Part shown: piece after piece, positions 1-22,993 of the stretch
Position numbering within the stretch: the first letter of the stretch is position 1
Layout of the letters: each line of letters begins with the position of its first letter
Source of the DNA: Candidatus Eiseniibacteriota bacterium
Lineage (GTDB): Bacteria; Eisenbacteria; RBG-16-71-46; JABDJR01; JAWXBZ01
DNA length: 29,718 nucleotides
Assembly (NCBI GenBank): GCA_034440375.1
Contig: JAWXBZ010000052.1
Span: 1-29,718 of the forward strand
Direction: 5' to 3'
The notes under the pieces: model-generated
What the model saw: only the letters and a program-made list of their open reading frames with translations
What the model was told of the DNA's origin: nothing
Databases searched by the model: none
Made by a program: the position numbers and the translations under genes

Positions 1-3000
1 ACTTCGGTCACCGTGATGATGTTGATATCAGCCGGCGTCGGGTCGGTAACCGTGGCAAAAACCTCCACGTCTCCACCCGGAGCCACCTGCGCCCGGTCGA
101 TTGACAGGGCAGCCACCGTCGGAGCGACCCGGTCCAGAATCACATCGATCTGGCCCTGGTTGTTTTCCGACAGGTTGCTGGTGACGTTGCCTTCCGAATC
201 GGTCACTTCCACGTGAACGTGGTTGATCGCGTTCTGGTGAAGCAGGTGGTTGTCATCGAGACGAGCCGAGCACCACCAATACGGAACCGCGGGAATCTGG
301 ATCTGCGATTCGTCGTGGCGGGGATCGTTCGTCGTGATGAAGTCACTTCCGACCAGGTCGATCGTGAATTCATAGTCGTAGGTGAAGCCAGGCAACAGTT
401 CGATCAGCACCGTCCAGTGACCGTCGCCGGCCACCAGGTCGTCGCCCGTCACGCCATCGTCGTACATGGCGAAGGTGCGGCTGCTCGGACCGTCCGTATA
501 CCCGCTCACCGTGATGGTGACGTTCTCCACGCGGTCCGGATCGACCGTCGGGAAGTCCGTCAGGTAAAGGACCTTGTGGACCGGCTGAGGCGGATCAGCC
601 TCGAGCGGATTCTCCGTCATCATGCAGGTGTCGGAATCGGCACCGTTCAGATCAAACGTGTGATAGACGATCAGCTTGACCTGTTCGATGTTCAACTCAT
701 CGGTCGTCACGAAGAACTCGGCCCAGTCACCCGAAAGCTTGTTGACCTGGGTGCCGATCGGATCGTCGTTGTCGAAGCCGAGGCCCTGGCTGACACAGAG
801 TGCGTTGCCGGGCATGTTGTCATTCAGGTCGATATTGCCATCGTTGTCGATGTCATCGATACCGTGAATGACGAACTCGCTGCCTTCGATATCGTTGAAC
901 CGGATCTGGAAGCCTTCGGAGACAATCGACTCTTCGCAGCTCACGCCATTGGGCGAGAAAGCCGCTGAGATGTCGAAGTGGGTCGTGTTGTTGTTGTCAC
1001 GCGACGGGACTGTCCACTCGGCCGTAAAGGGCGCCGTGTCGTCGCAGTCGATCGTCACGTAAGTGGTGATGTTGTAATCGATCGTGACGGTCACCCCAGC
1101 CGGGATGGCCGCGCCGAACTCGATGACATCACCACCGCTCCGCAGCGTGTAATGGCGGTAGGTCTTGGCCGGGGTCGAGGCAAAGAGTGCCGGTGCGACC
1201 CAGATGCCTTCCTGACCGTTGCTGAAGAACACGGACTCGTTCAGCCCGTTGCCGCTGCCGGGGACAGCTTCTTCGTTCAGCTGGCCGGAAACGAATGGGA
1301 ACGTGGTGGAGATGCCGGTGACCACTTCGCCCTCGATACGTTCGGCATAGTAGAAGCAGACCGAACCGGGGAGCGAGGCATCACTGACACTGGCTGAGAG
1401 AATGATCACATCACCCACCTGGACTACCGAGACGGGTAGATTGGAGCCCAGGAAGAGCGCGGTGGCCGCCACCGAGGCGGAGTTGCGGTTGATCGAGAAG
1501 CGATACGGATTGATCGGCGCCATCGTCCGGTTGCCGTTGGCATCCAGTGCGCTGGCGTAGAACTCGTATTCACCGTCCGCCAGGGTCGTGATGTCCCAGA
1601 CGAACTCATACGGATAGACACTGTCGACAATGCCGACCGGCTGATACTCGATTGCCGGGAAGGCATCCTCGTCAATGCTGCGGTAGTAGATGTCGATTTC
1701 GAGAATTTCGGCCTGATCCTCGGCGGTAACGAGGAGGTACATCGGGCCGACAGTCAACGAGTCGAGGCAGAGAGCATTGAGCGTGCCGCGGAGAACCGTT
1801 TCGATATCGAGGCTGTCACCATTGATGACGGCCACGACCACGTCGGTTTCCGGACCCTTGTTGTCACCCACGACCACGCTGATCGGATCGGGATCGCAGT
1901 CGGTGTTGCCGTTCAAGTCCATCGCGATCGAGCGGAACAGAACGTTCGTTTCCGTTGCGAACATGATGTTGTGGAAGAGGAAAGGCACCGAGTACGGGGC
2001 GAAGTAATCATCGGGGCTCTGGCCGCCAAGATCACTTACCGCCGTGTCGCCGTCCTCGTCCGTCTTGCCGTCGCCGTCGTCGTCCAGATCGTTGTTCGGA
2101 TCTTCGGAGACCAGCGGGAAGAGGTTATTGAACTTGCTCGACGGGTCAGTCGGCGTATCGATGACGCCGTTGTCACCCTTCGACAGGAAGATGTCGCCTA
2201 CCGTGTAGGTGCAACTGTTGTCGACGTCGACGAAAATCTCGTCGATACCTTCGTCAAACTGCCAGTTGCAATTGAGGTCGGCGTACATGTCGTTGTCGTC
2301 GTTGACATCGATGTTCGTCCAGGTAACGCCGCCATTGACGCTGTACTGGAAGAGCACCTTCAGAAGGTCGGTGTCGTCCGAGGTGACGTTGAGATAGAAG
2401 AATGCGTTGTCACCCGAGACGTAATCGCCATCGATCGGAGCGTTGATGACCGACTTGTCCTGGTTGGTGATGGAGGTGATGTTGGCCTCGGGAATGTCCG
2501 AGTCGACCTCGACCGCGGCCACCGGAATCGGTGAGCCGGGCAGGTCGCTATCGGTATTGCCGAGATTGTCGGTGGCAACCGCGCGGACCAGGTAGTCACC
2601 ATTCAGGCCGGTGACATCCCACAAGGCCATCCAGACATCCGTCTGCTCAGGACCCGCATTCAGCGGGTTGTCCTGCATGACGTAGTCGTTGGCATCGTAG
2701 GTCCCGTACGGCAGAACGTCAGCGAGATACTCGTTCGGCGCGAAGAGTGTCAGCACGGCACCCGAAGGGGGCACGTCGTTGCCTGGCCCGTAGGAGAGGA
2801 TGAAGTCCGCCCCGTTGTAGACACCATCGTTGTTCAAATCGGCAATGATGGGGTCAATCGAGCTGTATCCGTTGTTGTCCGGATCCCAGAACCGAACCGT
2901 GCCGGCAAAGGCCGTGAAGTCAATATGAAGGGCCTGAGCTACCCGCTCGAATCGTGCGATGCCGGCACGGAGAGTGACGTCACCCTTTCGTTCGTCGGCC

Positions 3001-6000
3001 TCGTCACCCTGCGTGTCGATATGGATCCAGCTACCGGCGTCATTGGCCACACCGTCGCCATTCGTGTCCGCGTAGTACTGGAATTCAACTTGCGACACGG
3101 TGCGGTCGTGAATGAAGACCTGGGCGAACAGTGTGTCCACCGAGGCAATGCCGCAGGTATCGAGTGTGTTGACACCCGGTACCACCGGCTGGATGTAGGC
3201 ACGGAGCGCCGTGTTGTCCAGCGTGACCGTGAATACGCACGAGGTCAGCACCGAGGTGTTGCCTTCGATGTCGACCGCTACCGCCCGGACCTCGTAAGAG
3301 CCGGCCGCCAGCGTGCGGGTATCCCAGGTCACGGTGGTCTTGAGCGTATCCGGCCCGGTGATGATGACCGGGTGGTGGATGCCGCTCGGATCACGCAGGA
3401 AGCCATCCGCCGGTACGCCGGTGAGGCTCGCAAACGGAATCCAGCTGTTCAGACCGATCGGCGTGTATTCGAAGTAGACATGGATGACGTCGTTGGTCGC
3501 CGGATCACCATCGCCGTCGCTGAACCCGGCTGAAACGTCCACGGCCTGCTCAACCGGCACCGCAGCGCCGTCGGACAGGTCGTAGTCGCTGCCAATCTGG
3601 CAGATACAGGCGTACGGGGCCGTGCCGTCAATCACGATGACGCAGAGTTCCCAGTTGCGCGCGTCGTCGAGGCAAAGCTCACCGACCGGACCATTGCCCG
3701 GAGTCGGAGGATCATTGTTGAGGGACTGGGCCTCGGTGTTGCCATGCTCATCGACGGCGTAGGCGCGGAAGTAGAACGTATCCGAGTCTGCCGGCGGGGC
3801 ATTGGACAAGAGCGGGGCATCCCAGTACAGCGTGTACGGGAAGGACGGATCCGGGTTCGCCGGATTCGCCGGGAGGAAATCCCAGGTCATCGTGCCCGCG
3901 TTCCAGATCTGGAAGTAGACGTTCGCGATGTCCGATCCGGAAACCACGTCCGCCCTCAGGATGTACGGGCCCGGATGGGCACCCCTGTCAAACACCTGGA
4001 GGCCGGGTATGGCCGGTTTGACGTCGACGAACCCGTCAAACTCCGGAGCCGCGCCGGTACCCGGCGTGTCGGAGTTCTGGGCCGGCGGAATGCAGACAAC
4101 CGGCGCCACCGAATCGAGCGTGAAGCGGAATGGGACCGCCCAGTTCGGGTTGTGGTTGTAAGCCTGGTCCACCGCCACCGCGCGCATCCGGTACTCCGAC
4201 CCGTCGACCAGGCCGTACAGGGCCTTGATGCGGCTCAGGTCGATGTTCCGGTCGCCGCGATCGCGGTAGTTCCAATCGAAGTACTGGAAGGCGCCCGTGC
4301 TGACGAAGGGCAGGTTGCTCGGGCCGCCGATGCCGGAGGCAATGATGTTCCGGGCGCCAAAGGCGTACGCCCCGAAGACATCCTTGCCACCGCGCTGGGT
4401 AAAGGCCGTCGAAACATTGCCGATGGTGTCGGACGTCTTGTCCAGGTAGCTCATCAGCCAGCTTCCCGGCGTCGTGCCCGGGACATCGGTGGTCGGCTTG
4501 GTGCTCTTCGAACCGGCGTATTTGGCAAGTTCGGCCGGGTTCTCGAAGGCGCGGACGCCGATCTGACCGGAGCCTGAGTTCGGCGACGCGGTCAGCTGTG
4601 CGATGGTCTGGTGAACGCCGCTCAGGGTGATGAAGCCGACGGTACCGTCCTGCATACCGTCTTCGTCGTCGTCCAGGTTGGCGTTGTAGTTTTCGACTTC
4701 GCTGGCATTGTCCACCGTGCCGTCGCCATCATCGTCAACGTCGTTGTCGATGGATTCGTCGACGTTGAACCAGACGACCGCGTTGGTGAACGGGTTGAAG
4801 CGGAAGAAGGCATCGTTGTCGTTGTCGATGCCGTCGTTGGTCCGCCAGATTCCGTCCGGCGCAATCGCGAGCGCGTTCGCCGCGGCATCCGCCTGCGAGG
4901 CATCCACGACCTGGGGATCGCTGAAGTCGACACCTTCGCCGTCTTCATCGACCACGCCGTCTTCGTCGTCATCAATACCATTCGTCTTGACGTTGGCAAC
5001 GAAGAGGCCGGTCGTGTCGTAATCGTCGTCGATGTTCCGGATACCCGGGAAACCGACATCCGCCTTGTCACCGACCGGGTCGAACGAGAGGTACTTCCAC
5101 CCCGCGTCCGGCTCCGAGCTCGAGTTCGGCGAATCGTCGATCTGGACCGCCACGAAGATCACATCGTCGTCCGACAGGGTCGAATCGACAAAGTTGATGT
5201 ACGGGGTGGCCATGCCCGAGGGCAGCTCATACACATTGTCGCCCGGCGTGATGATGTTGCCGGCCGGGTACGAACTGGCTTCGGTCAGACTGTTCTGCTT
5301 CTCGAGGTAGCTGATCTCCGAAACCGTCGGGGCCAGCGCGTCGAGCGTTGCCGTAAAGACCGAGTCCGCCGCCGTGTTGGTCAGATGATCCAGCGACAGG
5401 TCGGTCGTGAACGACATCGTGGCGCGGTTGGCCTGGCCGGGGAGTTCACTGGACAGAAGGTCCAGCGACGCCTGGTTCAGGATGGCGTTGTCGAGGATTC
5501 GGATCGGAATGTTGACATCGTCCAGCGTGGCGAAGTTGTCGCCGCCGTCCGGGTCGGCCACCAGGGTGGCGTCATTCGGATCGATCCAGTACTCGACGTA
5601 GTACCAGCCGTGCTCCTGCGGATCATTGGCATCGAGGTTGCCGTCGCCAATGTCGTAGATCTTCGTCGTGTAACCGGTACCGGTGTAATCAACGAAGGTC
5701 TCGCCGCAGTTGTAAATGCCGTCGCCATTCTCGTCGACGTACGGCTCCGGATAGTCCTTGACGTTGTTGAAGGCGATGACGCTGTTGTCGAAACGGGTCG
5801 AACCGTTGTCGATCCAGTCATTGTCTTCGTCGTTCTTGTTGGCGCCCAGGCTGATGAAGACGACACTGTCCGACCCGGCCCGCGTGCTGAAACCGCGGAA
5901 ATCGGCGGACAGGGCCAGGAGGTCGCTCTTGTGGATGCCGCTTGTATTGAAGACCGGATCAGGCGCATCGGCGCTGTCCGTCGCGGCCCCGAGAACGCGA

Positions 6001-8456
6001 ACCGTGTCGCCCGGTGAATAGCGGCGCAGGCTGTTGAGCGGATCCCGGAAGGTGGATGCGTAAACGGCATCCTTGTCCATCAGATCATTGCGGATGGCCG
6101 TCGGCGACGAGAGGGTCGAATTCCCCGCCACCACATCCACCGCGACGATCCAGACAAAATCGTCGGTCGGCTGGCCGATCGAGAAGACGTTGAACACGCC
6201 CGTGACCGGGTTGGCCGGACCCGAGCCGAGGAGGACTGTCAGAGCCGCGTCGTCATAGACGCGGATCGAGTCGGCTCCGATGGCCGAACCGGCATCACCG
6301 AAGATGAAGTGCTCTTCGGGATTCCGATTGCCGATGATGTGAATCATGTCGGTGTCGGTGGTCTGCCCCGGAACCGGAACGCACCCATCGGTAAACGCAC
6401 CGATTGGGCCGCCCTGTGCGCCCGCCGGATTGATCTGGCCGGGGGCCATGACGAAGCAGACGCAGTCATGATCGCGCGGCGCCGGAACCGGGCCGGCTAC
6501 CAGGGCGCCTGAGAACAGGCACGAAGTGGTATTCAACGCGATGTTTCCGTCCGCGTCGACGGCACAGATACCGAGGTTGACGTTGTCGCCAAGCGCGATG
6601 AGCTGACCGTCCGAATAAAACGCGACCCCGGGGCTGATGTCATAGGTACCGATGACGATCTTGTTGAGATCAGCGGCGACCTGGTAGCCCGGGTTCGGGT
6701 TGGCGATGAACGCGGCGTTGTTCAAGTGCGTTTCGATATAGATACGGTCGACCGGCACATTCTTCCGCGTGAAGAGGAGGAAATAGGCCGAGTCGTCCAC
6801 GTCCACTTCGTTGAACGCGTAGTAAGCGGTGTCAGCGCCGCTGATACTTTGCGCGTCACGGAAGTAGGTCTGGTTTAGCACGAAGTGAAGCTGCCGCGGG
6901 GCGGAGTAGTCACGGATGGGATACGTGGCGCCCGCACCGGTGTAGGTGGCAAGATCACCGTTGCCCGACGGAAGGGTCGGGGGTGCGCCGGCGGTCAGGT
7001 TTGTGGCCGTGTCGAGCCCGATCCGGTCGCCCGGCTCCCAGTTATTCGCGACCGTGAAACCGGTGATGGTCAGGAGACTGTCGTTATCGATGTTGTCGGT
7101 GACGATCAATCCGGTTGGATCGAAGCCATAGAAATCAAAATCGGTGACGTCGGCGAACATTCCGATCATCGGTGTGTCGAAAAAGATCTCGATGATGTCG
7201 GTGGCCGGATCGGAATCACCGCCGTCCTGGAATCGGGCCAGGACGATGACCGGCGAGGCGAAGACGGCGAGGCTGTTGCCCGCCGGGTTCACATTGCCCT
7301 GGAAGTCGGTGATCGAGCCGGTGACCGTCACGGTTCCGGTGACCACTGCGCCGACGAGGCCGGTGAAATCAGACAGCGTCAGGATGTGATCGCCGTCATT
7401 GCTGCCGAGCACCGGGCTGGTGATCACCCAGCTGAAACCGAAATCGCCAACCTGCACCGATGCCGGATCGACGTCGTCGCTGAACACCATCGTGAGGATG
7501 TCGTCGTTCAGACCGGCAGTGTTCTTGTCGTTGTAACCGGCAGCCAGGAGATAGGGGCCGCGGTAGGTAGTGGATCCGGCGGTCGACGTGGTGACGTCGA
7601 TGGTGTGGAACGGCGCGGTTGTCGAAATGTCATTCGTACCGTCGCCGGAAGCGGCGAAGTCGCCGGCCAGCGCCCCGGCAATGACCCGGATCTTCGAGAT
7701 CGCGGCCAGCATCTTGCCGTGCGAGGTGGAACCTTCACCTTCCTGGTTCTGGAAGGTGATGTCGACGGCCTTGCCGCTCGAGCCACCCACGATCGCGGAG
7801 ATCAGGTTGGCCGCACCGGTTCCGAACTCGGCCATGACAAAGTCCTGGCGGGGGTCGGTGGTGGCCAGCAGGGCCGCGTCGAGTTCATGGGTGAAATAGA
7901 GTCGCAGCACGTCGGCGTTGGGCCGGCTGCTGAAGACGTCCGGGGTGATCTCGGCGCGGTAAATGGCCGGGCCGGTCCGGATCTGGATCAGCGACACGTC
8001 GCTGGAGACGCTGCCGTCGGCGCCGCTCAGGGCGTCCATGACGGCCACCTGGACTGAGTCGCCGTTGGCGTAGGCGGTCGTGAAACCGGTCATGACAACC
8101 AGGTTTCTTCCGATGCGGGCGATGGAGCCTCCGGCGATCCCGCCAACGTCACCGACGGCCAGGCCGCCGTTGAAATTGAAGTCGGCCGCCTGGACGCTGC
8201 CCGCATTCACATCTTCGGAGAAGATGATGAACAGCGAGTCGTTGGCGGCGCCGGCTGGAGCCGTCGCCCGATAGACGGCGTCGACAATCGACGGGCCGAG
8301 GAGCTTCGGAGCGCCGTCAGCCAGTTTGAAGGGTGCCAGTGGCCCCAACTGCGGCGACAACGGGGGAGGCGCCGCGCCCGCGAACGATGCCGCCATCAAA
8401 CACGCGGCCACGCTCACCCACGCGAACGTATAACCCAACCTGCCTCTCCAACTCAT
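1..8456 (-). CDS. Giant secreted acidic multidomain surface protein (>2,818 aa, 3' end beyond the left edge); Ig-like repeats, Asp-rich putative Ca-binding loops, choice-of-anchor-X-like motif
   Basis: Manual translation: SD AAGGAGG, then ATG at 8456, gives MSWRGRLGYTFAWVSVAACLMAASFAGA|APPP (Sec-type signal peptide). The same frame still reads open at the window edge (..ADINIITVTE). The ORF track has no minus-strand ORF in this frame anywhere in 1-8456, which is what a stop-free ORF running off the edge would give. Recurrent Yx(V/F)RAxAxDxxGN and DxxxDG motifs. Confidence 0.92.
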   Translation of the reverse strand, partial: MSWRGRLGYTFAWVSVAACLMAASFAGAAPPPLSPQLGPLAPFKLADGAPKLLGPSIVDAVYRATAPAGAANDSLFIIFSEDVNAGSVQAADFNFNGGLAVGDVGGIAGGSIARIGRNLVVMTGFTTAYANGDSVQVAVMDALSGADGSVSSDVSLIQIRTGPAIYRAEITPDVFSSRPNADVLRLYFTHELDAALLATTDPRQDFVMAEFGTGAANLISAIVGGSSGKAVDITFQNQEGEGSTSHGKMLAAISKIRVIAGALAGDFAASGDGTNDISTTAPFHTIDVTTSTAGSTTYRGPYLLAAGYNDKNTAGLNDDILTMVFSDDVDPASVQVGDFGFSWVITSPVLGSNDGDHILTLSDFTGLVGAVVTGTVTVTGSITDFQGNVNPAGNSLAVFASPVIVLARFQDGGDSDPATDIIEIFFDTPMIGMFADVTDFDFYGFDPTGLIVTDNIDNDSLLTITGFTVANNWEPGDRIGLDTATNLTAGAPPTLPSGNGDLATYTGAGATYPIRDYSAPRQLHFVLNQTYFRDAQSISGADTAYYAFNEVDVDDSAYFLLFTRKNVPVDRIYIETHLNNAAFIANPNPGYQVAADLNKIVIGTYDISPGVAFYSDGQLIALGDNVNLGICAVDADGNIALNTTSCLFSGALVAGPVPAPRDHDCVCFVMAPGQINPAGAQGGPIGAFTDGCVPVPGQTTDTDMIHIIGNRNPEEHFIFGDAGSAIGADSIRVYDDAALTVLLGSGPANPVTGVFNVFSIGQPTDDFVWIVAVDVVAGNSTLSSPTAIRNDLMDKDAVYASTFRDPLNSLRRYSPGDTVRVLGAATDSADAPDPVFNTSGIHKSDLLALSADFRGFSTRAGSDSVVFISLGANKNDEDNDWIDNGSTRFDNSVIAFNNVKDYPEPYVDENGDGIYNCGETFVDYTGTGYTTKIYDIGDGNLDANDPQEHGWYYVEYWIDPNDATLVADPDGGDNFATLDDVNIPIRILDNAILNQASLDLLSSELPGQANRATMSFTTDLSLDHLTNTAADSVFTATLDALAPTVSEISYLEKQNSLTEASSYPAGNIITPGDNVYELPSGMATPYINFVDSTLSDDDVIFVAVQIDDSPNSSSEPDAGWKYLSFDPVGDKADVGFPGIRNIDDDYDTTGLFVANVKTNGIDDDEDGVVDEDGEGVDFSDPQVVDASQADAAANALAIAPDGIWRTNDGIDNDNDAFFRFNPFTNAVVWFNVDESIDNDVDDDGDGTVDNASEVENYNANLDDDEDGMQDGTVGFITLSGVHQTIAQLTASPNSGSGQIGVRAFENPAELAKYAGSKSTKPTTDVPGTTPGSWLMSYLDKTSDTIGNVSTAFTQRGGKDVFGAYAFGARNIIASGIGGPSNLPFVSTGAFQYFDWNYRDRGDRNIDLSRIKALYGLVDGSEYRMRAVAVDQAYNHNPNWAVPFRFTLDSVAPVVCIPPAQNSDTPGTGAAPEFDGFVDVKPAIPGLQVFDRGAHPGPYILRADVVSGSDIANVYFQIWNAGTMTWDFLPANPANPDPSFPYTLYWDAPLLSNAPPADSDTFYFRAYAVDEHGNTEAQSLNNDPPTPGNGPVGELCLDDARNWELCVIVIDGTAPYACICQIGSDYDLSDGAAVPVEQAVDVSAGFSDGDGDPATNDVIHVYFEYTPIGLNSWIPFASLTGVPADGFLRDPSGIHHPVIITGPDTLKTTVTWDTRTLAAGSYEVRAVAVDIEGNTSVLTSCVFTVTLDNTALRAYIQPVVPGVNTLDTCGIASVDTLFAQVFIHDRTVSQVEFQYYADTNGDGVANDAGSWIHIDTQGDEADERKGDVTLRAGIARFERVAQALHIDFTAFAGTVRFWDPDNNGYSSIDPIIADLNNDGVYNGADFILSYGPGNDVPPSGAVLTLFAPNEYLADVLPYGTYDANDYVMQDNPLNAGPEQTDVWMALWDVTGLNGDYLVRAVATDNLGNTDSDLPGSPIPVAAVEVDSDIPEANITSITNQDKSVINAPIDGDYVSGDNAFFYLNVTSDDTDLLKVLFQYSVNGGVTWTNIDVNDDNDMYADLNCNWQFDEGIDEIFVDVDNSCTYTVGDIFLSKGDNGVIDTPTDPSSKFNNLFPLVSEDPNNDLDDDGDGKTDEDGDTAVSDLGGQSPDDYFAPYSVPFLFHNIMFATETNVLFRSIAMDLNGNTDCDPDPISVVVGDNKGPETDVVVAVINGDSLDIETVLRGTLNALCLDSLTVGPMYLLVTAEDQAEILEIDIYYRSIDEDAFPAIEYQPVGIVDSVYPYEFVWDITTLADGEYEFYASALDANGNRTMAPINPYRFSINRNSASVAATALFLGSNLPVSVVQVGDVIILSASVSDASLPGSVCFYYAERIEGEVVTGISTTFPFVSGQLNEEAVPGSGNGLNESVFFSNGQEGIWVAPALFASTPAKTYRHYTLRSGGDVIEFGAAIPAGVTVTIDYNITTYVTIDCDDTAPFTAEWTVPSRDNNNTTHFDISAAFSPNGVSCEESIVSEGFQIRFNDIEGSEFVIHGIDDIDNDGNIDLNDNMPGNALCVSQGLGFDNDDPIGTQVNKLSGDWAEFFVTTDELNIEQVKLIVYHTFDLNGADSDTCMMTENPLEADPPQPVHKVLYLTDFPTVDPDRVENVTITVSGYTDGPSSRTFAMYDDGVTGDDLVAGDGHWTVLIELLPGFTYDYEFTIDLVGSDFITTNDPRHDESQIQIPAVPYWWCSARLDDNHLLHQNAINHVHVEVTDSEGNVTSNLSENNQGQIDVILDRVAPTVAALSIDRAQVAPGGDVEVFATVTDPTPADINIITVTE

Positions 8457-9091
8457 GCGAAAACCCTCCTTTGCTGACACCCGACCCTCATTCGGACCCC
8501 CATCATCGCGATCTGTCATACCGGAACTGTGAATTTTCGCTGGCAGCGAAGTTGACACCTTCTGCAAGGGCAACACCGTTATCTCCTTCCTAGAAGGCGC
8601 CGGACGGCGCCGCCTCCACGTATCGAACAACTCGATCTTTCTATCTGCGTCTCTGTGCATCGACTGTCTTTCCGGACAAAAGAAAAATCTGCAGAACTCT
8701 CGTTCTCCGCTTCCGCCCTTTTAAGCCTCAAACTACTGGTCTTGCAGATCTCTCTGTCTGTTCACTCGAACTGTCTGGCCGTCTTCGATGCTCTTCCTGG
8801 TTGCGCTCCTCGATGGCCTTGCGTCGTCTGGCGTACTTCGGCGTGCGTTTTCAACGTGTGACTTACCGGGTGACGCACATCATTCGTTGCAGGCTGTACT
8901 TCCCCCGTAACCCGTCACTGTTTGGTCTTCAGTGCCGGGACTATTGCACACGTAGAAAAAACTCGTCAACTGGCTAATACGTTCCCCCGGTTTGAGAGGG
9001 TTACTCCGCTTGCTTGCTGGACTTAGTTGCCACGTTTGAAAGTGTCGGTTGAGGTGCGGCCCCCACGTCGCGCATTGGCAAAATCGCGCGT

Positions 9092-9121
9092 AAACTAGCA
9101 CGCCCTCAAAAGAAGTGTCAA
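9092..9121 (-). promoter_or_regulatory. Candidate sigma70 promoter for the giant surface protein gene
   Basis: Minus strand reads TTGACA (9121-9116), 18 nt, then TAGTTT (9097-9092) preceded by TGc (extended -10). AT-rich DNA lies upstream. Confidence 0.45.
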
Positions 9122-9318
9122 TTGCAATTCAGAAAGGACCTGGAACCGCATGGAAATGACTCCCCCACTTTCACTTGGCAGTTTTCGACTTCATTGGAGA
9201 TGCACTTGAGAGAAAAGATGTTTTGGGATTTTTTAACCCAAATCATTGCACCGCAATAACTAAGCACCGAAACTCGCCGGTCGGGATGTACCGATCCAGT
9301 GCCTGTTGACTAAAGGCT

Positions 9319-9346
9319 CCGGCCGGAAGCCAAGGCTTCCGGCCGG
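9319..9346 (-). terminator. GC-rich hairpin just downstream of tRNA-Lys (probable terminator or processing stem)
   Basis: Perfect 13-bp inverted repeat CCGGCCGGAAGCC-aa-GGCTTCCGGCCGG, 5 nt after the tRNA 3' end. The U-tract is weak. Confidence 0.65.
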
Positions 9347-9351
9347 TAGTT

Positions 9352-9424
9352 TGACCCGTGCTGGAATCGAACCAGCGACTCCCTGATTAAAAGTCAGGTG
9401 CTCTACCATCTGAGCTAACGGGTC
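9352..9424 (-). tRNA. tRNA-Lys (anticodon TTT), CCA not encoded
   Basis: Reverse complement GACCCGTTAGCTCAGATGGTAGAGCACCTGACTTTTAATCAGGGAGTCGCTGGTTCGATTCCAGCACGGGTCA folds as a cloverleaf, with anticodon arm CCTGA-CTTTTAA-TCAGG and T-loop GTTCGA. Confidence 0.96.
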
Positions 9425-9430
9425 TGAATC

Positions 9431-10711
9431 CTAGAGACAAATCGTCTGATCACGGCCCGAACCGACCGACACCCAGCCGATCGGCGTATCGGCGATTTCG
9501 GCGATTCGCTCAAGATAACGCTGCGCTGCCTCCGGAAGATCATTCCAGCGGCGGCAACCGGTCAGGCACTCCTGCCAGCCCTTGTGTTCCTCATAGACCG
9601 GCCGACAGGCCTCGAGGCGCCCGGAATCAGCCGGAAATTCGGCGATCCACCCGCCGTCGATTTCGTATCCGGTACCGATGCTCAGCTTGTCGAGGCCCGA
9701 CAGCACATCGATCTTTGTGATGGCCAGCCGGGTCAGTCCATTCACGCGTACCGCGTGACGCAATCCGACGCCGTCGAGCCAGCCGCAGCGTCGCGGGCGC
9801 CCCGTCGTGGCACCGAACTCGGCACCTTGATTCCGCAGTGTCGTAGCCAGATCGATTGGCATCTCCGTCGGAAAAGGTCCCAGCCCGACGCGGGTTGTGT
9901 ACGCCTTGGTCACACCGATGACATCCTCGATCCAGTGCGGCCCGATGCCGGCCCCGATCAGGGCACCTCCCGCCGAGGCGCTGGATGATGTGACATACGG
10001 GTAGGTGCCATGGTCAACGTCGAGCAGTGTCCCCTGGGCCCCCTCGAGTAGCACGGCCCGGCCTCGTTTCAGTTCAGCGGTGAGCAGGCTTGAGACATCG
10101 GTCAGCATCGGCAGCAGGTGCTCGCCGAAGGCGCGGTACTGGTCGAAAATGGCCGTGGCATCCAGATCGGGCCGGCGGCCCCCGTCACGTGTCAGCCAAT
10201 GGCTGACCCATTCGACATTGGCCTCGATTCGATCCTTGAGGATCGATTCGTTGGCGAGATCGATCATCCGAATGCCGTTGCGGCTGGCCTTGTCGCGATA
10301 GGCGGGCCCGATGCCGCGCCGGGTCGTGCCGAAGGCGCCGGAGCCCCCCTCACGATCCTCCTCGAAGGCCTCGATTGTCTTGTGGTACGGGAGGATCAGG
10401 TGGGCACGCTCGCTGATCAGGATTCGGCCGGTCGTTTCGATGCCGCGCCGATTCAATCCCTCGATTTCTTCCAGGAAGGATGCGGGGTCGATGACCACGC
10501 CGTTGCCGAGTATGCCAATCTTGCCCGGATGCAGAATCCCCGAGGGAATCAGGTGGAGCACAAAAGTTTCGTTCCCGACAACGACGGTGTGGCCGGCGTT
10601 GGAACCACCCTGATAGCGGACCACGTAGTCGGCCTCCCCGGTCAGGAGGTCGACAAACTTACCTTTTCCCTCGTCACCCCACTGGGCGCCCAGAATGATC
10701 CGAGCCGGCAT
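9431..10711 (-). CDS. purA: Adenylosuccinate synthetase
   Basis: GAQWGDEGKGK, GGSNAGHT, EGAQG..LDVDHGTYPYVTSS and EFGATTGRPRRCGWLD signatures; 426 aa. Confidence 0.98.
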   Translation of the reverse strand: MPARIILGAQWGDEGKGKFVDLLTGEADYVVRYQGGSNAGHTVVVGNETFVLHLIPSGILHPGKIGILGNGVVIDPASFLEEIEGLNRRGIETTGRILISERAHLILPYHKTIEAFEEDREGGSGAFGTTRRGIGPAYRDKASRNGIRMIDLANESILKDRIEANVEWVSHWLTRDGGRRPDLDATAIFDQYRAFGEHLLPMLTDVSSLLTAELKRGRAVLLEGAQGTLLDVDHGTYPYVTSSSASAGGALIGAGIGPHWIEDVIGVTKAYTTRVGLGPFPTEMPIDLATTLRNQGAEFGATTGRPRRCGWLDGVGLRHAVRVNGLTRLAITKIDVLSGLDKLSIGTGYEIDGGWIAEFPADSGRLEACRPVYEEHKGWQECLTGCRRWNDLPEAAQRYLERIAEIADTPIGWVSVGSGRDQTICL

Positions 10712-10818
10712 CAGTCACATCCAATCAAGGCCGGCGCCCGCGCGGGGCGAGGGTCGGCTGGGAGGTCGATCGACAGAGTTTCAGAACGAAAAGCCGTCGG
10801 AGGCTAGCAGTCCGGCGC

Positions 10819-12414
10819 TCAGGCGGGCAACTGTACCCCGCGGACATACCGAACCCTCGGATCGGCCGCGATGGTTGCCAGGACCTCCGGTGTGGCCGGC
10901 AGGTCAAGACCAATGACCGTGAGCGCCGTGCCCCCCGGCCGATCACGGCCCCAGCTGATCCGGGCGATATTGAGCCCCGCCGATCCGAGCCAGCCGCCGA
11001 TGGCCCCGACGACCCCGGGAACATCATCGTTCCGAAGAACGATGAGTGGCCCGACCGGCACCGCTTCGAGTTCGAATCCGTCGATGGCCACCAGTCGCGG
11101 TTCCTCGCTGCGAATGACCGTCCCTTCCACCACCGTTGTCCCTGATTCGGTCTCCAGGGTCAGCCGGATCAGGTTGGAGTGATCACCGGCGACCGGATCG
11201 AACGATTCAACCACCTCGATCTGGAGCTCCTGCGCCTTGATCCTGGCATTGACGAAATTGACCACCTCGCCGGCCACGGTCGAGAGGACCCCCTTCAAGC
11301 CGGCCAGCGTCAGTGCCTGTAACGGCAGGTTGGCGGCCTCCCCCCGATAGTCGAGCGCCAGGCGGCGCCAGCTTCCCTGTGGGGCCAGCGAACCGGCCAG
11401 GAGGCCCAGCCTCTCGATCAGATCGAGATAGGGGCGAGCCTTCTGGTAGGCCTCGGCCGATAGGCCGGGCATGTTCACTGCGTTCCGGATGGCCCCCGAC
11501 TGAAAGTAATCGAGAACCTGGCGGGCCAGTTCCGCCGACACGTTTTCCTGTGCTTCACGGGTCGAGGCGCCCAGGTGCGGCGCCGCCACCACTCTTGGAT
11601 GCGAAAGGAGCGGATGGTCCGCCGGCGGTGGCTCCTGTTCAAAAACATCAAGTGCCGCGCCGGCCAGGTGGCCCGATTCCAGCGCGATGTGCAGCGCGGC
11701 TTCATCCACGAGGCCGCCGCGCGCGCAGTTGATCAGCCGGGAACCAGCCTTCATGGCGGCCAGTTCACGCCCGCCGATCAGGTGCTTCGTCGACTTCGTC
11801 AACGGCGCATGAAGAGTCACGATGTCCGCCGCGGCGATCAACTCGTCCATGGATGCCAGACGCGCGCCGGCCGCCCGGGCAATTTCCTCGGTCACGAAAG
11901 GATCGGCCACCAGCACCGTCATGTCGAAGGCGCGCGCGCGCGAGGCCACCTCGCGTCCGATCCGGCCAAAGCCGATCACACCGAGCGTCTTGCCGGCCAG
12001 TTCGGTTCCCATGAACCCGGCGCGATCCCATTTGCCGGCCGACAACGATACGGCCGCCGGCACGAGGTTGCGAACCATCGCCAGAAGCAGCGTCCAGGTC
12101 AGCTCGGCCGCCGCAATGGAATTGGCGTCGGGCGTATTCATGACGACGATCCCCCGGCGCGTGGCGGCCTCCACATCGACGTTGTCGACGCCGGTGCCGG
12201 CCCGGCCGATCAGCCGGAGGTGGGGTGCCATCGCCAGGACCTCGGCGGTGGCCCTGGTGCCGCTTCGAACGAGCAGCGCCTCGGCGGTCTCGAGCGCCCC
12301 GGCCAGAGCCGCAGGGTCGGCACCGCTCACCTGGACAACCTCGAAAAGCCCTGAGTGTCGAAGGAGATCGAGCCCCTCCGCCGCCATCGGATCGGACACC
12401 ACCACCCGAATCAT
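10819..12414 (-). CDS. serA: D-3-phosphoglycerate dehydrogenase (long type I form with C-terminal ASB and ACT domains)
   Basis: RAGTGVDNVD, GFGRIG, NCARGGLVDE, DVFEQEPP and PHLGAST motifs; C-terminal NDDVPGVVG ACT domain; 531 aa. Confidence 0.95.
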   Translation of the reverse strand: MIRVVVSDPMAAEGLDLLRHSGLFEVVQVSGADPAALAGALETAEALLVRSGTRATAEVLAMAPHLRLIGRAGTGVDNVDVEAATRRGIVVMNTPDANSIAAAELTWTLLLAMVRNLVPAAVSLSAGKWDRAGFMGTELAGKTLGVIGFGRIGREVASRARAFDMTVLVADPFVTEEIARAAGARLASMDELIAAADIVTLHAPLTKSTKHLIGGRELAAMKAGSRLINCARGGLVDEAALHIALESGHLAGAALDVFEQEPPPADHPLLSHPRVVAAPHLGASTREAQENVSAELARQVLDYFQSGAIRNAVNMPGLSAEAYQKARPYLDLIERLGLLAGSLAPQGSWRRLALDYRGEAANLPLQALTLAGLKGVLSTVAGEVVNFVNARIKAQELQIEVVESFDPVAGDHSNLIRLTLETESGTTVVEGTVIRSEEPRLVAIDGFELEAVPVGPLIVLRNDDVPGVVGAIGGWLGSAGLNIARISWGRDRPGGTALTVIGLDLPATPEVLATIAADPRVRYVRGVQLPA

Positions 12415-13508
12415 CGCACGCCCTCGATTTTCAGCTCGGACATCACCTCTGCCAGGGCGGCGAGTACATCCGTCACATCCTGGTCGGTGTACGCCCCCAT
12501 GTGGCCGATGCGGAAGATCTTCCCTTTCATGCTTCCCTGGCCACCGGCCAGGCGCATTCCGTGTTTTGCCCGCAACGATTTCACCAGCAGATCGGGGTCC
12601 GGCGTGGTGATCTCACCCACGGCGGTCACGCCGTTGGAGGGGGACGGGGCGAACAGCGGCAACCCGAGCGAGCGCACGCCGTCGCGGCAGGCCGCGGCCA
12701 GTCGCGCGTGACGGGCGAACACCTGTTCGAGACCCTCCTCGTTCAGCATCGCCAGCGATTCACGGAGCCCGATGATCAGGCTGATGGCCGGCGTGAACGG
12801 CGTCGTGCCCTTGGCCAGCTGCTTCGCCGCCTCAGCCAGGTCGAAGTAGAAGCGCGGCAGATCGGCATGAGCCATGGCCCGCCGCCCCATCTCGGAGAGG
12901 GCCACGAAGGCGAGGCCGGGCGGCAACATCAGCCCCTTCTGGCTGCCGCTGACCACGGCGTCCAGTCCCCACTCGTCCATCCGGATCGGGTGCACGCCGA
13001 GCGAGGTGATTGCATCGACCATGACTAGCGTTCCCCGATCGCGCGCCACCCGCGCCAGTTCGGCGATGTCGTGCAGCGCCCCGGTGGAAGTTTCGCTGTG
13101 GGTGAGCCCCACCGCCTGCACCGTATGCGGCTGCGCATCGAGAAAACTCGCCAGTTGCTCGGGTGTGGCCACCTGTCCGTATGGAACAGTCAGTTCGGCC
13201 ACATCGAGGCGGTAGGCCCGGCCGAGGTCGGTCCATCGTTCGCCGAACTTGCCGGCGTTGACCGTCACCAGCGTCTGCCCGGTTCGGCAGCAGTTCGCCA
13301 GGGCCGCCTCAAGGCCCCCGGTACCGGAGGCGGCCAACGTCAACACGTCCTCTTTGGTGCCGAACAGTGGCTGGAGGCCAAGGGACACCTCGCGGAAGAT
13401 CTCGGTAAATTCAGCGGTGCGATGATGAATGATCGGCTCGGACATGACGCGGCGGATCCGCTCGGGGATCGGCGTCGGGCCGGGCGTAAACAGGCGTTCC
13501 AGGGCCAC
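12411..13508 (-). CDS. Class V PLP-dependent aminotransferase (serine-pyruvate/alanine-glyoxylate family; likely supplies the phosphoserine aminotransferase step)
   Basis: FTPGP, HSETSTG, VDAITS and SGSQKG (PLP Lys) motifs, plus FRIGHMG. Start reassigned to GTG 13508 behind SD GGAGG. Overlaps the serA start by 4 nt. Confidence 0.9.
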   Translation of the reverse strand: MALERLFTPGPTPIPERIRRVMSEPIIHHRTAEFTEIFREVSLGLQPLFGTKEDVLTLAASGTGGLEAALANCCRTGQTLVTVNAGKFGERWTDLGRAYRLDVAELTVPYGQVATPEQLASFLDAQPHTVQAVGLTHSETSTGALHDIAELARVARDRGTLVMVDAITSLGVHPIRMDEWGLDAVVSGSQKGLMLPPGLAFVALSEMGRRAMAHADLPRFYFDLAEAAKQLAKGTTPFTPAISLIIGLRESLAMLNEEGLEQVFARHARLAAACRDGVRSLGLPLFAPSPSNGVTAVGEITTPDPDLLVKSLRAKHGMRLAGGQGSMKGKIFRIGHMGAYTDQDVTDVLAALAEVMSELKIEGVR

Positions 13509-13608
13509 GGGACCTCCAGTGCAACAAATGGTTCGGCCCACCGGCGGCAACGAACTGCCGACGATGGGCCGGAGATTATGCCCTTTTGGGCGGGGCGACG
13601 CGAGTGAG

Positions 13609-15996
13609 CTAGTGCGTCGTCAAGTTTCGGGTCTGGCGGAAGTCCGGGCTCTTTTCCGTCTTGGCGAGTGTGTGTTCCAGCACTTCGTCCATGTGCTCGA
13701 CAAGAATTATGTCCAGCCCCTGTCGCACTTCCTTCGGGATCTCCTCGAGATCCTTGCGATTGCCGGCCGGCACGATCAGCGTTTTCACTCCATGACGGCG
13801 AGCCGCCACCGACTTTTCGGTCAGCCCGCCGATCGGCATCACCGATCCGCGCAGCGTAATTTCACCGGTCATGGCCACGTGGGGCAACGTCGGAATGCCG
13901 GTCAGCGCCGAGATCAACGCCACCGCCATCGTGATGCCGGCGGACGGGCCGTCCTTCGGCACCGCGCCCTCGGGCACGTGAATGTGAATATCAATGTTCT
14001 GATAGAAGTTCTTTTCCAGCCCCAGGAAACCTGAAATCCGCCGCGCGTATGACAGGGCTGCGTGCGCCGATTCGCGCATGACCTCGCCCAGCTTGCCGGT
14101 CAGGTTCACCTTTCCCTTGCCGGTCAGGATCGACACTTCGATCGTCATGACATCGCCGCCGAACTCGGTCCAGGCCAGCCCGTTGGCCAGGCCGATCCGC
14201 CGTTCCTGTTCGAGCGGCTGGTCGAGGAACTTGGGCACGCCCAGATACTTGGAAAGCTGGGCGGGCGTCACCGTCGCCGGCACGCCTCCTTCGCCGCCGG
14301 CCACCTTGCGGGCCACCTTGCGGCAGATGGTGGCGATTTCGCGCTCGAGATTGCGAACGCCCGCCTCGCGGGTGTACTGCGTCACGATCTCGCCCAGCGT
14401 TTTCTCGGAAAGGATGACGTCCCCTTCCTTGAGACCGGTGGCTGCCAGCTGCTTTTTCACCAGGAAGTCACGGGCGATCTGGACCTTTTCGTTCTCGAGG
14501 TAGCCGGGCAGTTGGATGATCTCCATCCGATCGCGCAGCGGCGCCGGAATGTTGCCCAGGTAGTTGGCGGTCGTGATGAACAGGACCTGGGACAGGTCGT
14601 AGTCGACCTCGAGATAGTGATCGTTGAAGGCATTGTTCTGCTCGGGATCAAGCACCTCGAGCAAGGCCGACGAGGGATCACCGCGCCAATCGGAGCCAAT
14701 CTTGTCGACTTCGTCCAGCAAAATGACCGGGTTGATCGTGCCGGCCTTCTTCATGGCCTGGATGATTCGGCCGGGCATCGATCCGATGTACGTCCGGCGA
14801 TGGCCGCGGATCTCTGACTCGTCCTTGACCCCACCCAGGCTCATCCGCACGAACTTTCGTCCGAGGGAACGGGCGATCGACTTGCCGAGGCTGGTCTTGC
14901 CCACGCCCGGAGGGCCGGCAAAGCAGAGAATCGGCCCCTTGAGTGACTTGGAGAGCTTGATGATCGCCATGTACTCGAGGATTCGTTCCTTGATCTTCTT
15001 GAGCCCGTGGTGGTCCTCGTCCAGGCACTTCTGCACCGCGGCCAGATCGAGATTGTCATTGGAGCGTTTTTTCCACGGCAACCCGACCAGCCAGTCCAGG
15101 TAATTGCGCAGGACGGTGGCCTCGGGAGACATGAACGACATCTTGGACAGGCGGTCCAGTTCTCGGACGGCCTTTTCCTGGACTTCCTTCGGCATGCGGG
15201 CCTTCTTGATGTCCCGCTCCAGTTCCTCGATCTCCGAGGCAAACTCGTTCTGGTAGCCCAGCTCCTTGCGGATCGCCTTGAGCTGCTCGTTGAGATAGAA
15301 CTCCTTCTGATTCTTGTGCACCTGGCTGCGAACCTGTCCCTCGATCTTGCGCTCGAGCTTCACGATTTCAAGTTCGGACAGCAGCACTTCCGACAGGCGC
15401 TTCAGGCGCAGCATCGGATCGTCGATCTCGAGGACTTCCTGCTTGACCGGCACCTTGACCAGGAGATGACTGGCGATGGTGTAGGCCAGCGTGTGCGGAT
15501 CGGCGATGTTGTTGACGGTCAGCAGCACCTCATCGGAGATGCGGCGGTTGAGATGCACATAGTCGGTGAACTGGGTCAGGGTCGAGCGCATCAACGCCTC
15601 GGTCTCCGCGGAGCGATTGACCTCGTCGGGCATGAGCTCGAGCTTGACCTGGAAATAGTCCTCGGAGGCCATGAATCGCTTCACGCGCGCCCGGCAGATC
15701 CCCTCCACCAGCACCCGCATCGTGCCGTCCGGAAGACGGAAGAGCTGCAGGATTCGAATGACCGTGCCGACCTTGTGCAGGTCGTCGCGGGCCGGGTCGA
15801 CCATTTCGGGCTTCATCTGCGAGGTGGCGAAGAGAATGCGGTCGCGCTGGACTGCGGCTTCGATGGCGTTGACGGAACCGGCCCTGCCGACGAGGAGGGG
15901 GGTTGTCATGTAGGGGAACAAGACCACGTCCCGGAGGGGTAGTAGAGGAAGACGGTCTTCGATGTCGAAGATTTCGTCGTCGCGTTTGATTTGCAT
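13609..15996 (-). CDS. lon: ATP-dependent protease La
   Basis: [14 protein letters not shown]-domain, Walker [19 protein letters not shown], catalytic PKDGPSAG; 795 aa. Confidence 0.98.
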
Positions 15997-16058
15997 TTAG
16001 GTGGGTTGGTCCTTCTGGGGGTTGATTGAAGTTGGTCGGTGAAGGTCGGCTTTGGCGT

Positions 16059-16099
16059 CTCCAGGTGCGTAGCACCTGGAGCTACTGCACCTGGAGCTA
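16059..16099. repeat. Hairpin plus tandem 13-bp direct repeat in the clpX-lon spacer
   Basis: CTCCAGGTGC (16059-16068) is the reverse complement of GCACCTGGAG, which occurs twice as GCACCTGGAGCTA (16072-16084 and 16087-16099). Confidence 0.7.
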
Positions 16100-16100
16100 T

Positions 16101-17357
<1,257 letters not shown>

Positions 17358-17408
17358 CTCCTTGAAGGGGTCCTCCGGCGTCAGACGCCGGCTACCGGGG
17401 TTATCGGC

Positions 17409-17999
17409 CTAGACCTGGCCCCGCTTGACGATCACTTCGTCGACGATCCCGTATTCCTTGGCTTCGGCCGCCGACATGAAGTAGTTCCGGTCGGTGTCCT
17501 TCAGAATCTGCTCCAAAGTCCGGCCGGTGTGCGTATTGATGATCTGGTTGATCTTGTCACGGATAACCAGCATCTCCTTGGTATATATCTCGATATCGGT
17601 CGCCTGCCCCTGGGTTCCCCCCAGTGGCTGGTGGATCATGACCCGGGCGCTGGGCAGGATGGAACGCTTTCCCTTGGCCCCGGCCAGGAGCAGGAGGGCC
17701 CCCATCGAAGCGGCCTGCCCCATGCACGTGGTGGCCACGGCCGGTTTGATGAACTGCATCGTATCGTAGATTCCGAGACCGGCGGTCACGGAGCCCCCCG
17801 GGCTGTTGATATAAAGCTGGATGTCCTTGTCCGGGTCCTCGGCCTCCAGAAACAGCAACTGGGCGATGATCAGGTTGGCCACGACATCGTCGATGCCCGT
17901 TCCGAGGAAGATGATCCTGTCTTTCAGCAGTCGACTGTAAATATCGTACGCGCGTTCGCCGCGCGCCGACTGTTCGACCACCATTGGCACCAAAGCCAT
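17409..17999 (-). CDS. clpP: ATP-dependent Clp protease proteolytic subunit
   Basis: [34 protein letters not shown] (catalytic Ser), MIHQP. Confidence 0.98.
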
Positions 18000-18002
18000 T
18001 CC

Positions 18003-19286: not shown

Positions 19287-19330
19287 CGGACAACCTCGGC
19301 TTCCTGTATTGGAGATGTCGAGCGGACATC

Positions 19331-19413
19331 TGGTGCGAGAGGGGGGACTCGAACCCCCATGGTTGCCCACCGGATCCTAAATCCGGCGCGTCTGCCAGTT
19401 CCGCCACTCTCGC
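19331..19413 (-). tRNA. tRNA-Leu (anticodon TAG), CCA encoded
   Basis: Reverse complement GCGAGAGTGGCGGAACTGGCAGACGCGCCGGATTTAGGATCCGGTGGGCAACCATGGGGGTTCGAGTCCCCCCTCTCGCACCA, with anticodon arm CCGGA-TTTAGGA-TCCGG and a long variable arm. tRNA-Leu upstream of tig is a common arrangement. Confidence 0.96.
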
Positions 19414-19458
19414 TGGTGAAAGGCTCCTATGTCGATGACGGCCGGCGAAAGCGGGCGG

Positions 19459-19486
19459 AGTATAGCATACCGGCCTTATCTGTTAA
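19459..19486 (-). promoter_or_regulatory. Candidate sigma70 promoter for tRNA-Leu-tig-clpP-clpX-lon
   Basis: Minus strand reads TTAACA, 16 nt, then TATACT preceded by TGc. An AT-rich UP-like tract lies upstream and a GC-rich discriminator downstream. Confidence 0.6.
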
Positions 19487-19515
19487 CTCTATATACAACT
19501 TTGATTTAGATAAAA

Positions 19516-20724: not shown

Positions 20725-20771
20725 CTCGAATATTGTGGCTGCCGGGGGGCGATCCGGGATCGCCCGACGGC

Positions 20772-22986: not shown

Positions 22987-22993
22987 TGTATCC

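Follow-up and report, generated by a model that had tools for sequence, protein, structure and literature searches.

A predicted giant immunoglobulin-like fiber protein of Candidatus Eisenbacteria and its putative wall-anchored barrel partner

The stretch of DNA considered here, the window, is the entire contig C52 (29,718 bases; GenBank JAWXBZ010000052.1) of Candidatus Eiseniibacteriota bacterium, whose metagenome-assembled genome (MAG; GCA_034440375.1, here G000) comprises 264 contigs and 3.96 Mb and is 93.7% complete. The left end of the window holds the beginning of a very large minus-strand gene, which we call the giant gene. Together with a partner gene on a second contig, C241, it probably specifies an exported, immunoglobulin-like (Ig-like) fiber that is held on the cell surface by a dedicated, wall-anchored outer membrane (OM) barrel and acts as a long-reach adhesin or contact fiber. 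The features of the giant gene within the window are as follows:

3..8456, minus strand: coding sequence of the giant protein, residues 1-2818 (the N-terminal ~53%), stop-free, GC content at third codon positions (GC3) 0.81, running off the contig end
8465..8471, minus strand: Shine-Dalgarno sequence AAGGAGG, 8 nucleotides (nt) upstream of the ATG at 8456
8373..8456, minus strand: putative Sec-type signal peptide, residues 1-28 (MSWRGR, hydrophobic core, AGA|A), called by eye and from ortholog conservation
6387..8372, minus strand: N-terminal head, residues 29-690, predicted with AlphaFold2 (AF2), VIA-align and Foldseek to form five or six consecutive Ig-like beta-sandwich domains
4467..6359, minus strand: acidic block, the most conserved part, residues 700-1330, with Dx[DN]x[DN]G / DNDxD motifs at residues 908, 1162, 1239 and 1262
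3..4319, minus strand: putative array of divergent Ig-like modules, residues 1380-2818, marked by 'Y.hRAhAhD..GN' and 'vD...P' motifs and by colinear conservation
8457..9430, minus strand: untranslated 974 nt between purA (9431-10711; assigned with Pfam) and the giant gene, presumed promoter and leader

The reading frame stays open from 8660 to the left edge of the window (2,886 codons), and from the ATG at 8456-8454 it runs for 2,818 codons with zero stops. Because base composition predicts 81.6 stops over this length, the chance of finding none is ~1e-36. The remaining five frames carry 11-139 stops over the same region, and GC at codon positions 1, 2 and 3 of the giant frame is 0.60, 0.43 and 0.81. 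The frame is real and strongly coding, as the first-pass annotation had proposed for a stop-free frame leading from a Shine-Dalgarno-preceded ATG to the contig end. That annotation had also dismissed the plus-strand open reading frames (ORFs) lying over the gene, and we concur, since the plus-strand frame that contains them has just 11 stops and is the usual antisense shadow. The gene itself escaped the ORF track because ORFs that run off the end of the source are listed there only when open ends are requested. An extreme shadow is seen at one orthologous locus (L017, G048:C1:220500-240499), where the plus-strand antisense frame at 3899-19282 is open for 5,128 codons and exceeds the true minus-strand gene of 5,104 codons; such shadow frames could mislead gene callers.

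The start of the gene is shared by its relatives. All 12 of the 12 orthologs examined have an in-frame, Shine-Dalgarno-coded 'E[GE]xGM' signature before the same start position, and all 12 begin with a basic n-region followed by a hydrophobic core. Inspection and this conservation, rather than a predictor, are the basis on which we call the signal peptide that the first-pass annotation had seen. A lipoprotein reading of 'VAAC' (residues 16-19) was considered and rejected; a lipobox is unlikely because Cys19 is not conserved in the closest ortholog. A composition count likewise bears out the described bias toward Asp, Gly, Thr and Asn and against basic residues: over the 2,818 residues D makes up 11.3%, G 8.8%, T 7.6% and N 6.5%, with K at 1.3% and R at 2.7%. 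The presumed leader contains one sigma-70-like site (8969-8940) and two weak terminator-like hairpins, none of them beyond shuffle expectation. Logan contigs from sequencing runs X1 and X2, which may be source samples of the assembly, cover window positions 1-1200 with 0 differences, and run X5 shows a single G>C at position 318; run X7 leaves most of 1-1200 uncovered and proves nothing. None of the 20 runs listed as carrying the sequence is an RNA run. Past window position 1, the X2 contig extends for 1,993 letters and the X1 contig for 1,945 or 6,627, depending on strand convention.

The remainder of the gene most likely lies on contig C241. A scan of all contig ends of G000 found at the start of C241 a frame that is open at its 5' side, spans 2,490 codons and ends '...GVYLARIDANDGTRTVSQVLKIAVWRD'. 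In a word-indexed protein search with 7,993 scored candidates, the window part of the giant matched database protein P0002 (itself) at 100%, and three further proteins were relatives. One of them, P0003 (3,742 residues, lacking its N-terminus), bridges the two contigs: its residues 1-1261 align with giant residues 1568-2816 at 63.6% identity, and its residues 1282-3742 align with residues 1-2490 of the C241 ORF at 67.1% identity. The ortholog from genome G055, of the same family, is one open frame of 5,348 codons with 66% identity across giant residues 1-2816, and orthologs at 66%, 50% and 36% identity are all colinear. The unassembled gap between C52 and C241 amounts to about 18-20 residues, 18 residues of the G055 ortholog falling into it in a 13-sequence alignment. 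When the 300 bases at either end of C52 were compared with the genome by blastn-short, they overlapped no other contig end, and so the join rests on orthologs. By this reconstruction the giant protein is predicted to have ~5,330 residues (~570 kDa, isoelectric point (pI) ~4), of which the window holds ~53%; the first-pass lower bound of 2,818 residues conveyed a very large protein and fell well short of its full length. Without the signal peptide, the two parts together have 5,280 residues, 568.9 kDa and pI 4.05, with 791 D+E against 255 K+R. A tblastn search of the giant residues against their own genome gave one match outside C52, a weak one on C241 (E 8.6e-4), and thus G000 appears to have no close paralog. 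The gene, at ~16 kb, is among the largest in the genome and therefore represents a large investment for the cell.

Both a stop and a sorting domain, which the first-pass annotation had suggested seeking on the adjacent contig, are found on C241. The last ~90 residues of the giant form a C-terminal domain (CTD) that scores 27.5 bits against TIGR04183 (cut-off 23; residues 2399-2484 of the C241 part) and 30.8 and 37.2 against Pfam FlgD_ig (cut-off 27), with Pfam Por_Secre_tail below its cut-off (19.8 and 24.7 versus 27). NCBIfam listed 10 families for the C-terminal half at E<=0.1, none of them a type B CTD family. By these profile scores the giant ends in a type A / FlgD-Ig sorting domain of type IX secretion systems (T9SS), and this domain is strongly conserved up to its final residues (KxxxW[RN][ED]).

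Beginning 115 nt after the giant stop, a second gene encodes 538 residues that comprise a signal peptide, a barrel of the PorV/PorQ family, three Cys/Asp repeats of the TSP3 type and an OmpA_C domain scoring 79.7 bits. The partner exceeds the cut-off of 90 for the PorV/PorQ family NF033709 (96.9 bits for the whole protein, 99.2 for the barrel alone) and falls below the equivalog cut-offs for PorV (31 versus 250), PorQ (37 versus 220) and PorV2 (46 versus 325 bits); the 5 families listed for its barrel at E<=1 do not include PorP/SprF. We saw no terminator-like site between the two genes, and a 17-pair hairpin with a T-run lies 3' of the partner (L001 9260-9297, L001 being the C241 locus). The arrangement argues for a two-gene operon of giant and partner, and the barrel-TSP3-OmpA gene is the next gene in 11/11 ortholog loci for which downstream DNA is available. 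Complex prediction, run on a single pair, the giant CTD with the OmpA-fused barrel, supports docking of the former on the latter: the ipSAE score was 0.85 (median of three runs), a mark attained by 116/157 solved complexes and 2/215 mismatched pairs, and the best control reached 0.00. The runs agreed in at least 90% of contacts, partner pLDDT was at least 83, and the predicted interface includes the invariant CTD residues P20, N21, P22, N83, G84, K104 and W108.

No characterized family matches the giant over its full length. No Pfam or NCBIfam family scores above cut-off on the 2,818 residues of the window part, on which there are weak, sub-threshold traces of Big_13, Big_3_3 and OmpL47 at residues 1707-1752. 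In 11 of the 12 orthologs Pfam likewise finds nothing above cut-off in the N-terminal half; the exception, L025, contains an inserted von Willebrand factor A (VWA) domain (46.4 bits). Searches of the Protein Data Bank (PDB) found no solved structure related in sequence to the window part, and profiles A3 and A4 gave chance-level matches alone (E 0.05-0.5), to FN3/Ig proteins. We nevertheless think that the giant is built from roughly 45-50 divergent, very acidic, Ig-like beta-sandwich modules with calcium-loop-like Asp motifs, as its recurring motifs and predicted folds suggest. The pattern 'Y.hRAhAhD..GN' occurs at residues 1422, 1561, 1721, 1955 and 2172 and at six sites on C241, and invariant 'D...P' pairs recur along the protein; we take both to be boundary marks of bacterial Ig-like domains. 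The motif Dx[DN]x[DN]G appears 14 times in the whole giant, against 1.5 +/- 1.2 (maximum 6) in 200 shuffles. The modular character claimed in the first-pass annotation holds loosely, in the sense of these motifs, and does not extend to repeats: no tandem repeats were found in the DNA of the gene, and the protein resembles itself only faintly from one part to another (at E<=0.01 there are 20 tile pairs, of which the top one has 29% identity over 99 residues; best internal identity 29-35%). The modules thus appear to be ancient and each distinct.

AF2 on a 26-sequence alignment gave an all-beta model of the N-terminal head (residues 29-690) with pLDDT 75.4 and pTM 0.78. With VIA-align, model residues 24-237 matched the S-layer protein SbsC at Z 11.3 (root-mean-square deviation 2.1, 95 residues aligned) and SbsB at Z 9.3, and residues 490-628 matched FN3-type domains at Z 7-8. 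Foldseek returned Ig-array proteins alone, including FMG1B (E 5.5e-13), SbsB (1.1e-8) and the GhpA fragments 9flw, 9flv and 9fly (E 3.6e-8 to 2.7e-6), all with TM <=0.2; an ESM Atlas match to Big_5/CopC/SWM_repeat at 0.91 is a lead only. According to these models, the N-terminal 630 residues form five or six Ig-like domains resembling SbsC, and the head is probably the distal tip of the fiber. Beyond the head, conservation peaks at residues 901-950 and 1201-1250, and clusters of invariant Asp fall within 700-1330. The full-length alignment of 13 sequences has 525 columns in which 12 or more agree; D accounts for 138 of these, G for 71, P for 59 and N for 31, with only 3 H, 2 C and 5 S, a pattern that argues against a conserved active site. 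The view of a very large secreted surface protein without a catalytic domain or a named family is therefore upheld, there being neither an in-frame stop nor a characterized family that covers its full length.

The giant appears to define an uncharacterized, Eisenbacteria-restricted protein family. At E<=1e-10, 32 of the phylum's 206 genomes, G000 included, have a match, and all of these belong to families f1-f6; leaving G000 aside, matches are present in 31/44 genomes of f1-f6 and 0/161 of f7-f18. Twelve fetched orthologs have 4,958-5,906 residues, one of them (L027; 4,971) being truncated by a contig end, and in assemblies of 4-20 contigs each ortholog occupies one uninterrupted frame. Colinearity extends along the full length of all 13 sequences, with ~20-55% identity per 50-residue block. 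Out of 1.84 billion cluster representatives, a profile of the head recovered 68 proteins at E<=0.001, of which 32 reach E<=1e-30; in the strong matches the head is always N-terminal, and the complete proteins have ~5,000 residues. The family is likely under-counted, because the gene is split in fragmented MAGs. Public names for its members are 'hypothetical protein [Candidatus Eisenbacteria bacterium]', 'Ig-like domain-containing protein' and 'Mg-chelatase subunit ChlD', the last of which is borne by L025 (G001:C142; 5,906 residues) because of its VWA insert at residues 2359-2525. This insert is an adhesion-type domain gained in one lineage.

The genome encodes several components with which such a protein could be exported and processed. 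SprA is found on contig C34 (535 bits summed) and also in 4/4 relatives (G055, G048, G047, G007). PorU (520.5 bits versus a cut-off of 420; C196:26443-29850) is followed directly by a PorV-family barrel, the canonical PorV (C196:30153-31085). The PorU model also matched ~50 further places in G000 via its CTD part, and six places are above the PorV-family cut-off. A search of literature full text found no paper linking Eisenbacteria with type IX secretion or T9SS.

The pairing of a CTD with a downstream barrel goes beyond the giant. Ten places in G000 match the PorV/PorQ model, and 7/10 directly follow a same-strand ORF whose tail fits the CTD profile, PorU ahead of canonical PorV among them. 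A barrel-profile scan of genome contigs returned 80 loci, 78 of them evaluable, from many phyla, among them Elusimicrobia, Zixibacteria, Cloacimonadota and Poribacteria; in 36/78 a matching CTD forms the end of an upstream ORF of 200 residues or more. The nearest relatives come from Eisenbacteria, Cloacimonadota, Ignavibacteria and Zixibacteria and follow ORFs of 2,400-3,300 or more residues, most of which are cut by the 10-kb flank. Contig C241 carries a second such cassette in locus L001, where a 442-residue ORF (11798-13126) with a CTD-profile tail (E 3.9e-8) overlaps by 4 nt a PorV/PorQ-family barrel gene (13123-13821; 56 bits, cut by the contig end), and a LacI-type regulator lies just upstream (10562-11623). 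By eye, CTDs ahead of PorV-like barrels (L028-L107, G000) often end in '[LIV]K[IVL][AGT]V', as in LKIAVWRD, VKIAVIR and IKIAVK, and other CTDs of G000 end in 'RKMLLVR'-type strands; the former last strand, seen by eye only, could be a targeting signature.

As for the neighborhood in the window, the giant gene is preceded by purA (9431-10711), as it also is at no fewer than two orthologous loci (L016, L020). In G000 purA belongs to a minus-strand housekeeping block at 9431-24674, upstream of the giant gene, that further includes a serA-like dehydrogenase, a class V aminotransferase, lon, clpX, clpP, trigger factor, isocitrate/isopropylmalate dehydrogenase, thiolase, enoyl-CoA hydratase and 3-hydroxyacyl-CoA dehydrogenase. 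The sole sizeable plus-strand gene amid minus-strand ones encodes a Fic/DOC-domain protein of 388 residues (25712-26878; Pfam 54.1 bits) in the lowest-GC part of the window (0.55). Pfam assigns no family at E<=1e-5 to the ORFs at 20772-21749 (minus; 325 residues), 27094-27561 (plus; 155 residues) and 27604-28629 (minus; 341 residues), and the last adjoins a T2SSE/PilB-type ATPase gene (28666-29706) that reaches the contig end.

The reading that we favor, and hold to be somewhat probable, is that of an exported fiber anchored by its own barrel. Sec would deliver the giant to the periplasm, its CTD would carry it through the genome-encoded SprA-type translocon and would then remain docked on the private PorV-like barrel, and the OmpA domain of the barrel would rivet the assembly to the cell wall. 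Since barrel and OmpA domain are joined in one polypeptide, a single protein would do the work of PorP plus PorE. The outcome would be a calcium-stiffened fiber that, by our own estimate of ~50 domains at ~4 nm each, might extend for ~200 nm, with the SbsC-like head at its far end. Its role is most likely that of an adhesin or contact fiber in microbial mats and sediments, and a fiber of such length on bacteria of these habitats could mediate attachment or cell-cell capture. Among the guesses of the first-pass annotation (adhesin, S-layer or scaffold), the data thus incline toward a fiber and leave the S-layer as a minority view.

Several observations weigh against this reading. Structures of PorV-cargo complexes have been solved, and the docking result may for this reason reflect mere likeness to them. 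AF2 failed on residues 700-1330 with 13 sequences (pLDDT 42.1), leaving the fold of this most conserved block not established, with one confident beta-sandwich at residues ~720-790. Calcium binding, the length of the fiber and its role as an adhesin are properties that we infer, and the join of C52 to C241 comes from orthologs and not from contiguous DNA. The motor proteins GldM, GldL and GldK had 0 matches in G000 with models TIGR03517, PF12081, TIGR03513 and TIGR03525 (GldN was not searched), and GldM (TIGR03517) had 0 matches in the four near-complete relatives (94-100% complete). TIGR03517 scored 473.9 bits in a Flavobacteriaceae genome that served as a positive control; the four models were silent in 14 standard control genomes, TIGR03517 alone is validated, and divergent forms are possible. 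We therefore liken the giant in its workings to a T9SS cargo and make no claim to a canonical T9SS; the host may have a T9SS-like export route without the known motor. Finally, the CTD scores as type A. In Bacteroidota, cargo of this type relies on the general shuttle PorV and becomes covalently linked to anionic lipopolysaccharide (LPS) (PMC9143113, PMC12618676), and no private barrel retains it.

This last point leads to what we regard as an unlikely alternative, namely that the giant is a classical type A cargo for which the private barrel is a transient shuttle, PorU removing the CTD and the giant becoming glycolipid-linked or being released as a matrix scaffold. Its CTD does pass TIGR04183, PorU is above cut-off in G000, and anionic-LPS anchoring is the textbook type A route (PMC9143113). 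However, an OmpA wall anchor is hard to reconcile with a mobile shuttle, the barrel-OmpA gene is fixed beside the giant gene in every locus that could be inspected, and conservation of the CTD to its last residues is what one would expect of a part that is retained. A lattice that tiles the surface in the manner of an S-layer or cell coat, in place of a projecting fiber, seems rather improbable to us. The first two domains of the head find their best matches in SbsC and SbsB, with Sap and EA1 also listed, and the giant shares with many S-layer proteins an acidic composition rich in calcium motifs. Yet these matches are to single Ig-type domains, with TM <=0.2 for the whole model; the Pfam listing contains no SLH or other S-layer anchoring family; and ~570 kDa is far above the size of lattice subunits, all known examples of which are, to our knowledge, far smaller.

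We consider it highly improbable that the giant is a gliding adhesin moved along the surface by a T9SS motor. It does recall SprB-SprF in being so large, in its Ig-like repeats and T9SS-type CTD and in having a barrel gene next to it, but a peptidoglycan-riveted anchor is incompatible with a moving adhesin, neither a type B CTD family nor a PorP/SprF family was listed, and the motor proteins were not found in G000, nor was GldM in its four relatives with a model whose positive control worked. An artefact, whether the frame be a pseudogene or a chimera of the assembly or C52 and C241 carry genes unrelated to each other, is hardly credible. The 264-contig MAG and a join that was not read as DNA invite the suspicion, but the vanishing chance of so long a frame without stops, its GC3, the single-frame orthologs of 4,958-5,906 residues in assemblies of 4-20 contigs and the similar identity of P0003 to both halves (64% and 67%) all speak against it. 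Returning to the anchored fiber, a more far-reaching version can be offered very tentatively: a CTD protein and a PorV/PorQ-like barrel might constitute an autonomous module for anchoring, and perhaps for export, that dispenses with GldKLMN and, in Eisenbacteria, devotes one PorV paralog to each of several cargos, the giant being a rigid, position-specific and possibly multi-stranded fiber of the grappling-hook type in a wall-riveted socket. We entertain this because the modules are individually conserved and free of repeats, because cassettes make up 7/10 and 36/78 of the barrel places, and because SprA is present and GldM was not found.

The giant can be compared with several known systems. 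The giant adhesins of the type I secretion system (T1SS), such as LapA, MpIBP and SiiE, are huge acidic Ig-like arrays, thought to be stiffened by calcium, that project from the OM with one end retained; their tandem repeats are almost identical to one another, and they carry RTX repeats at the C-terminus as well as a T1SS signal. In contrast, the Eisenbacteria giant is without tandem repeats and combines a putative Sec signal peptide with a T9SS-type CTD, and no RTX family is listed on it by Pfam at E<=1. The PorU-PorV and PorZ-PorQ pairs of the T9SS attachment complex resemble it in that the gene of a CTD protein immediately precedes that of a PorV/PorQ-family barrel on which the protein stays, as is proposed for the giant, but the partner described here is not an equivalog of PorV, PorQ or PorV2 and has TSP3 repeats and an OmpA domain, and its cargo is a predicted ~570-kDa fiber, not a sortase or an LPS-delivery protein.

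Among the closest known systems is the grappling hook of Aureispira (Bacteroidota) with GhpA, a protein of 5,898 residues with Ig-like domains and a T9SS CTD, downstream of which the PorP-like GhpB and the PorE-like GhpC are encoded (bioRxiv 10.1101/2024.01.29.577165). Both proteins exceed 5,000 residues and have a signal peptide, successive Ig-like domains and a C-terminal T9SS sorting domain, and in both cases an OM barrel and an OmpA-like peptidoglycan binder are encoded directly downstream and a long contact fiber is proposed. They differ in sequence, since phmmer gave 0 matches at E<=0.1 for the window part against all PDB chains, GhpA fragments included, and the fold matches are to generic Ig arrays (TM <=0.2); the C-terminal half matched only FlgD among PDB chains, through the CTD. 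Moreover, the Eisenbacteria barrel belongs to the PorV/PorQ family and not to PorP, it is fused to OmpA in one protein, and its host is of another phylum, in which GldM was not found.

The complexes PG1035-PorP-PorE of Porphyromonas gingivalis and SprF-SprB have also been described (PMC9143113), SprB of Flavobacterium johnsoniae being a 6,497-residue adhesin (PMC9143113, PMC12618676). As in our proposal, the CTD of the cargo is held there by a cognate OM barrel encoded alongside, and the barrel is coupled to a peptidoglycan-binding OmpA_C protein. Unlike ours, these systems employ type B CTDs with PorP/SprF barrels, whereas the Eisenbacteria pair combines a CTD that passes as type A with a PorV/PorQ barrel into which the PorE function is fused. 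Because type A CTDs are all said to be recognized by PorV (PMC12618676), a private PorV paralog for one cargo departs from the rule. The suggestion in the first-pass annotation of an undescribed cell-surface system is therefore borne out for the protein family, which is uncharacterized, and not for the design: giant T9SS cargos that come with their own barrel and wall anchor are already known in Bacteroidota (GhpA-GhpB/C, SprB-SprF, PG1035-PorP-PorE). What is new here is the type A-like CTD, the PorV/PorQ barrel, the fusion of barrel and OmpA and a host without recognizable GldM. If the docking is real, the cognate shuttle and anchor logic of type B CTDs and PorP/SprF barrels extends to the PorV family and beyond Bacteroidota, and the Eisenbacteria pair offers a compact two-gene system for testing how giant fibers are held on the outer membrane.

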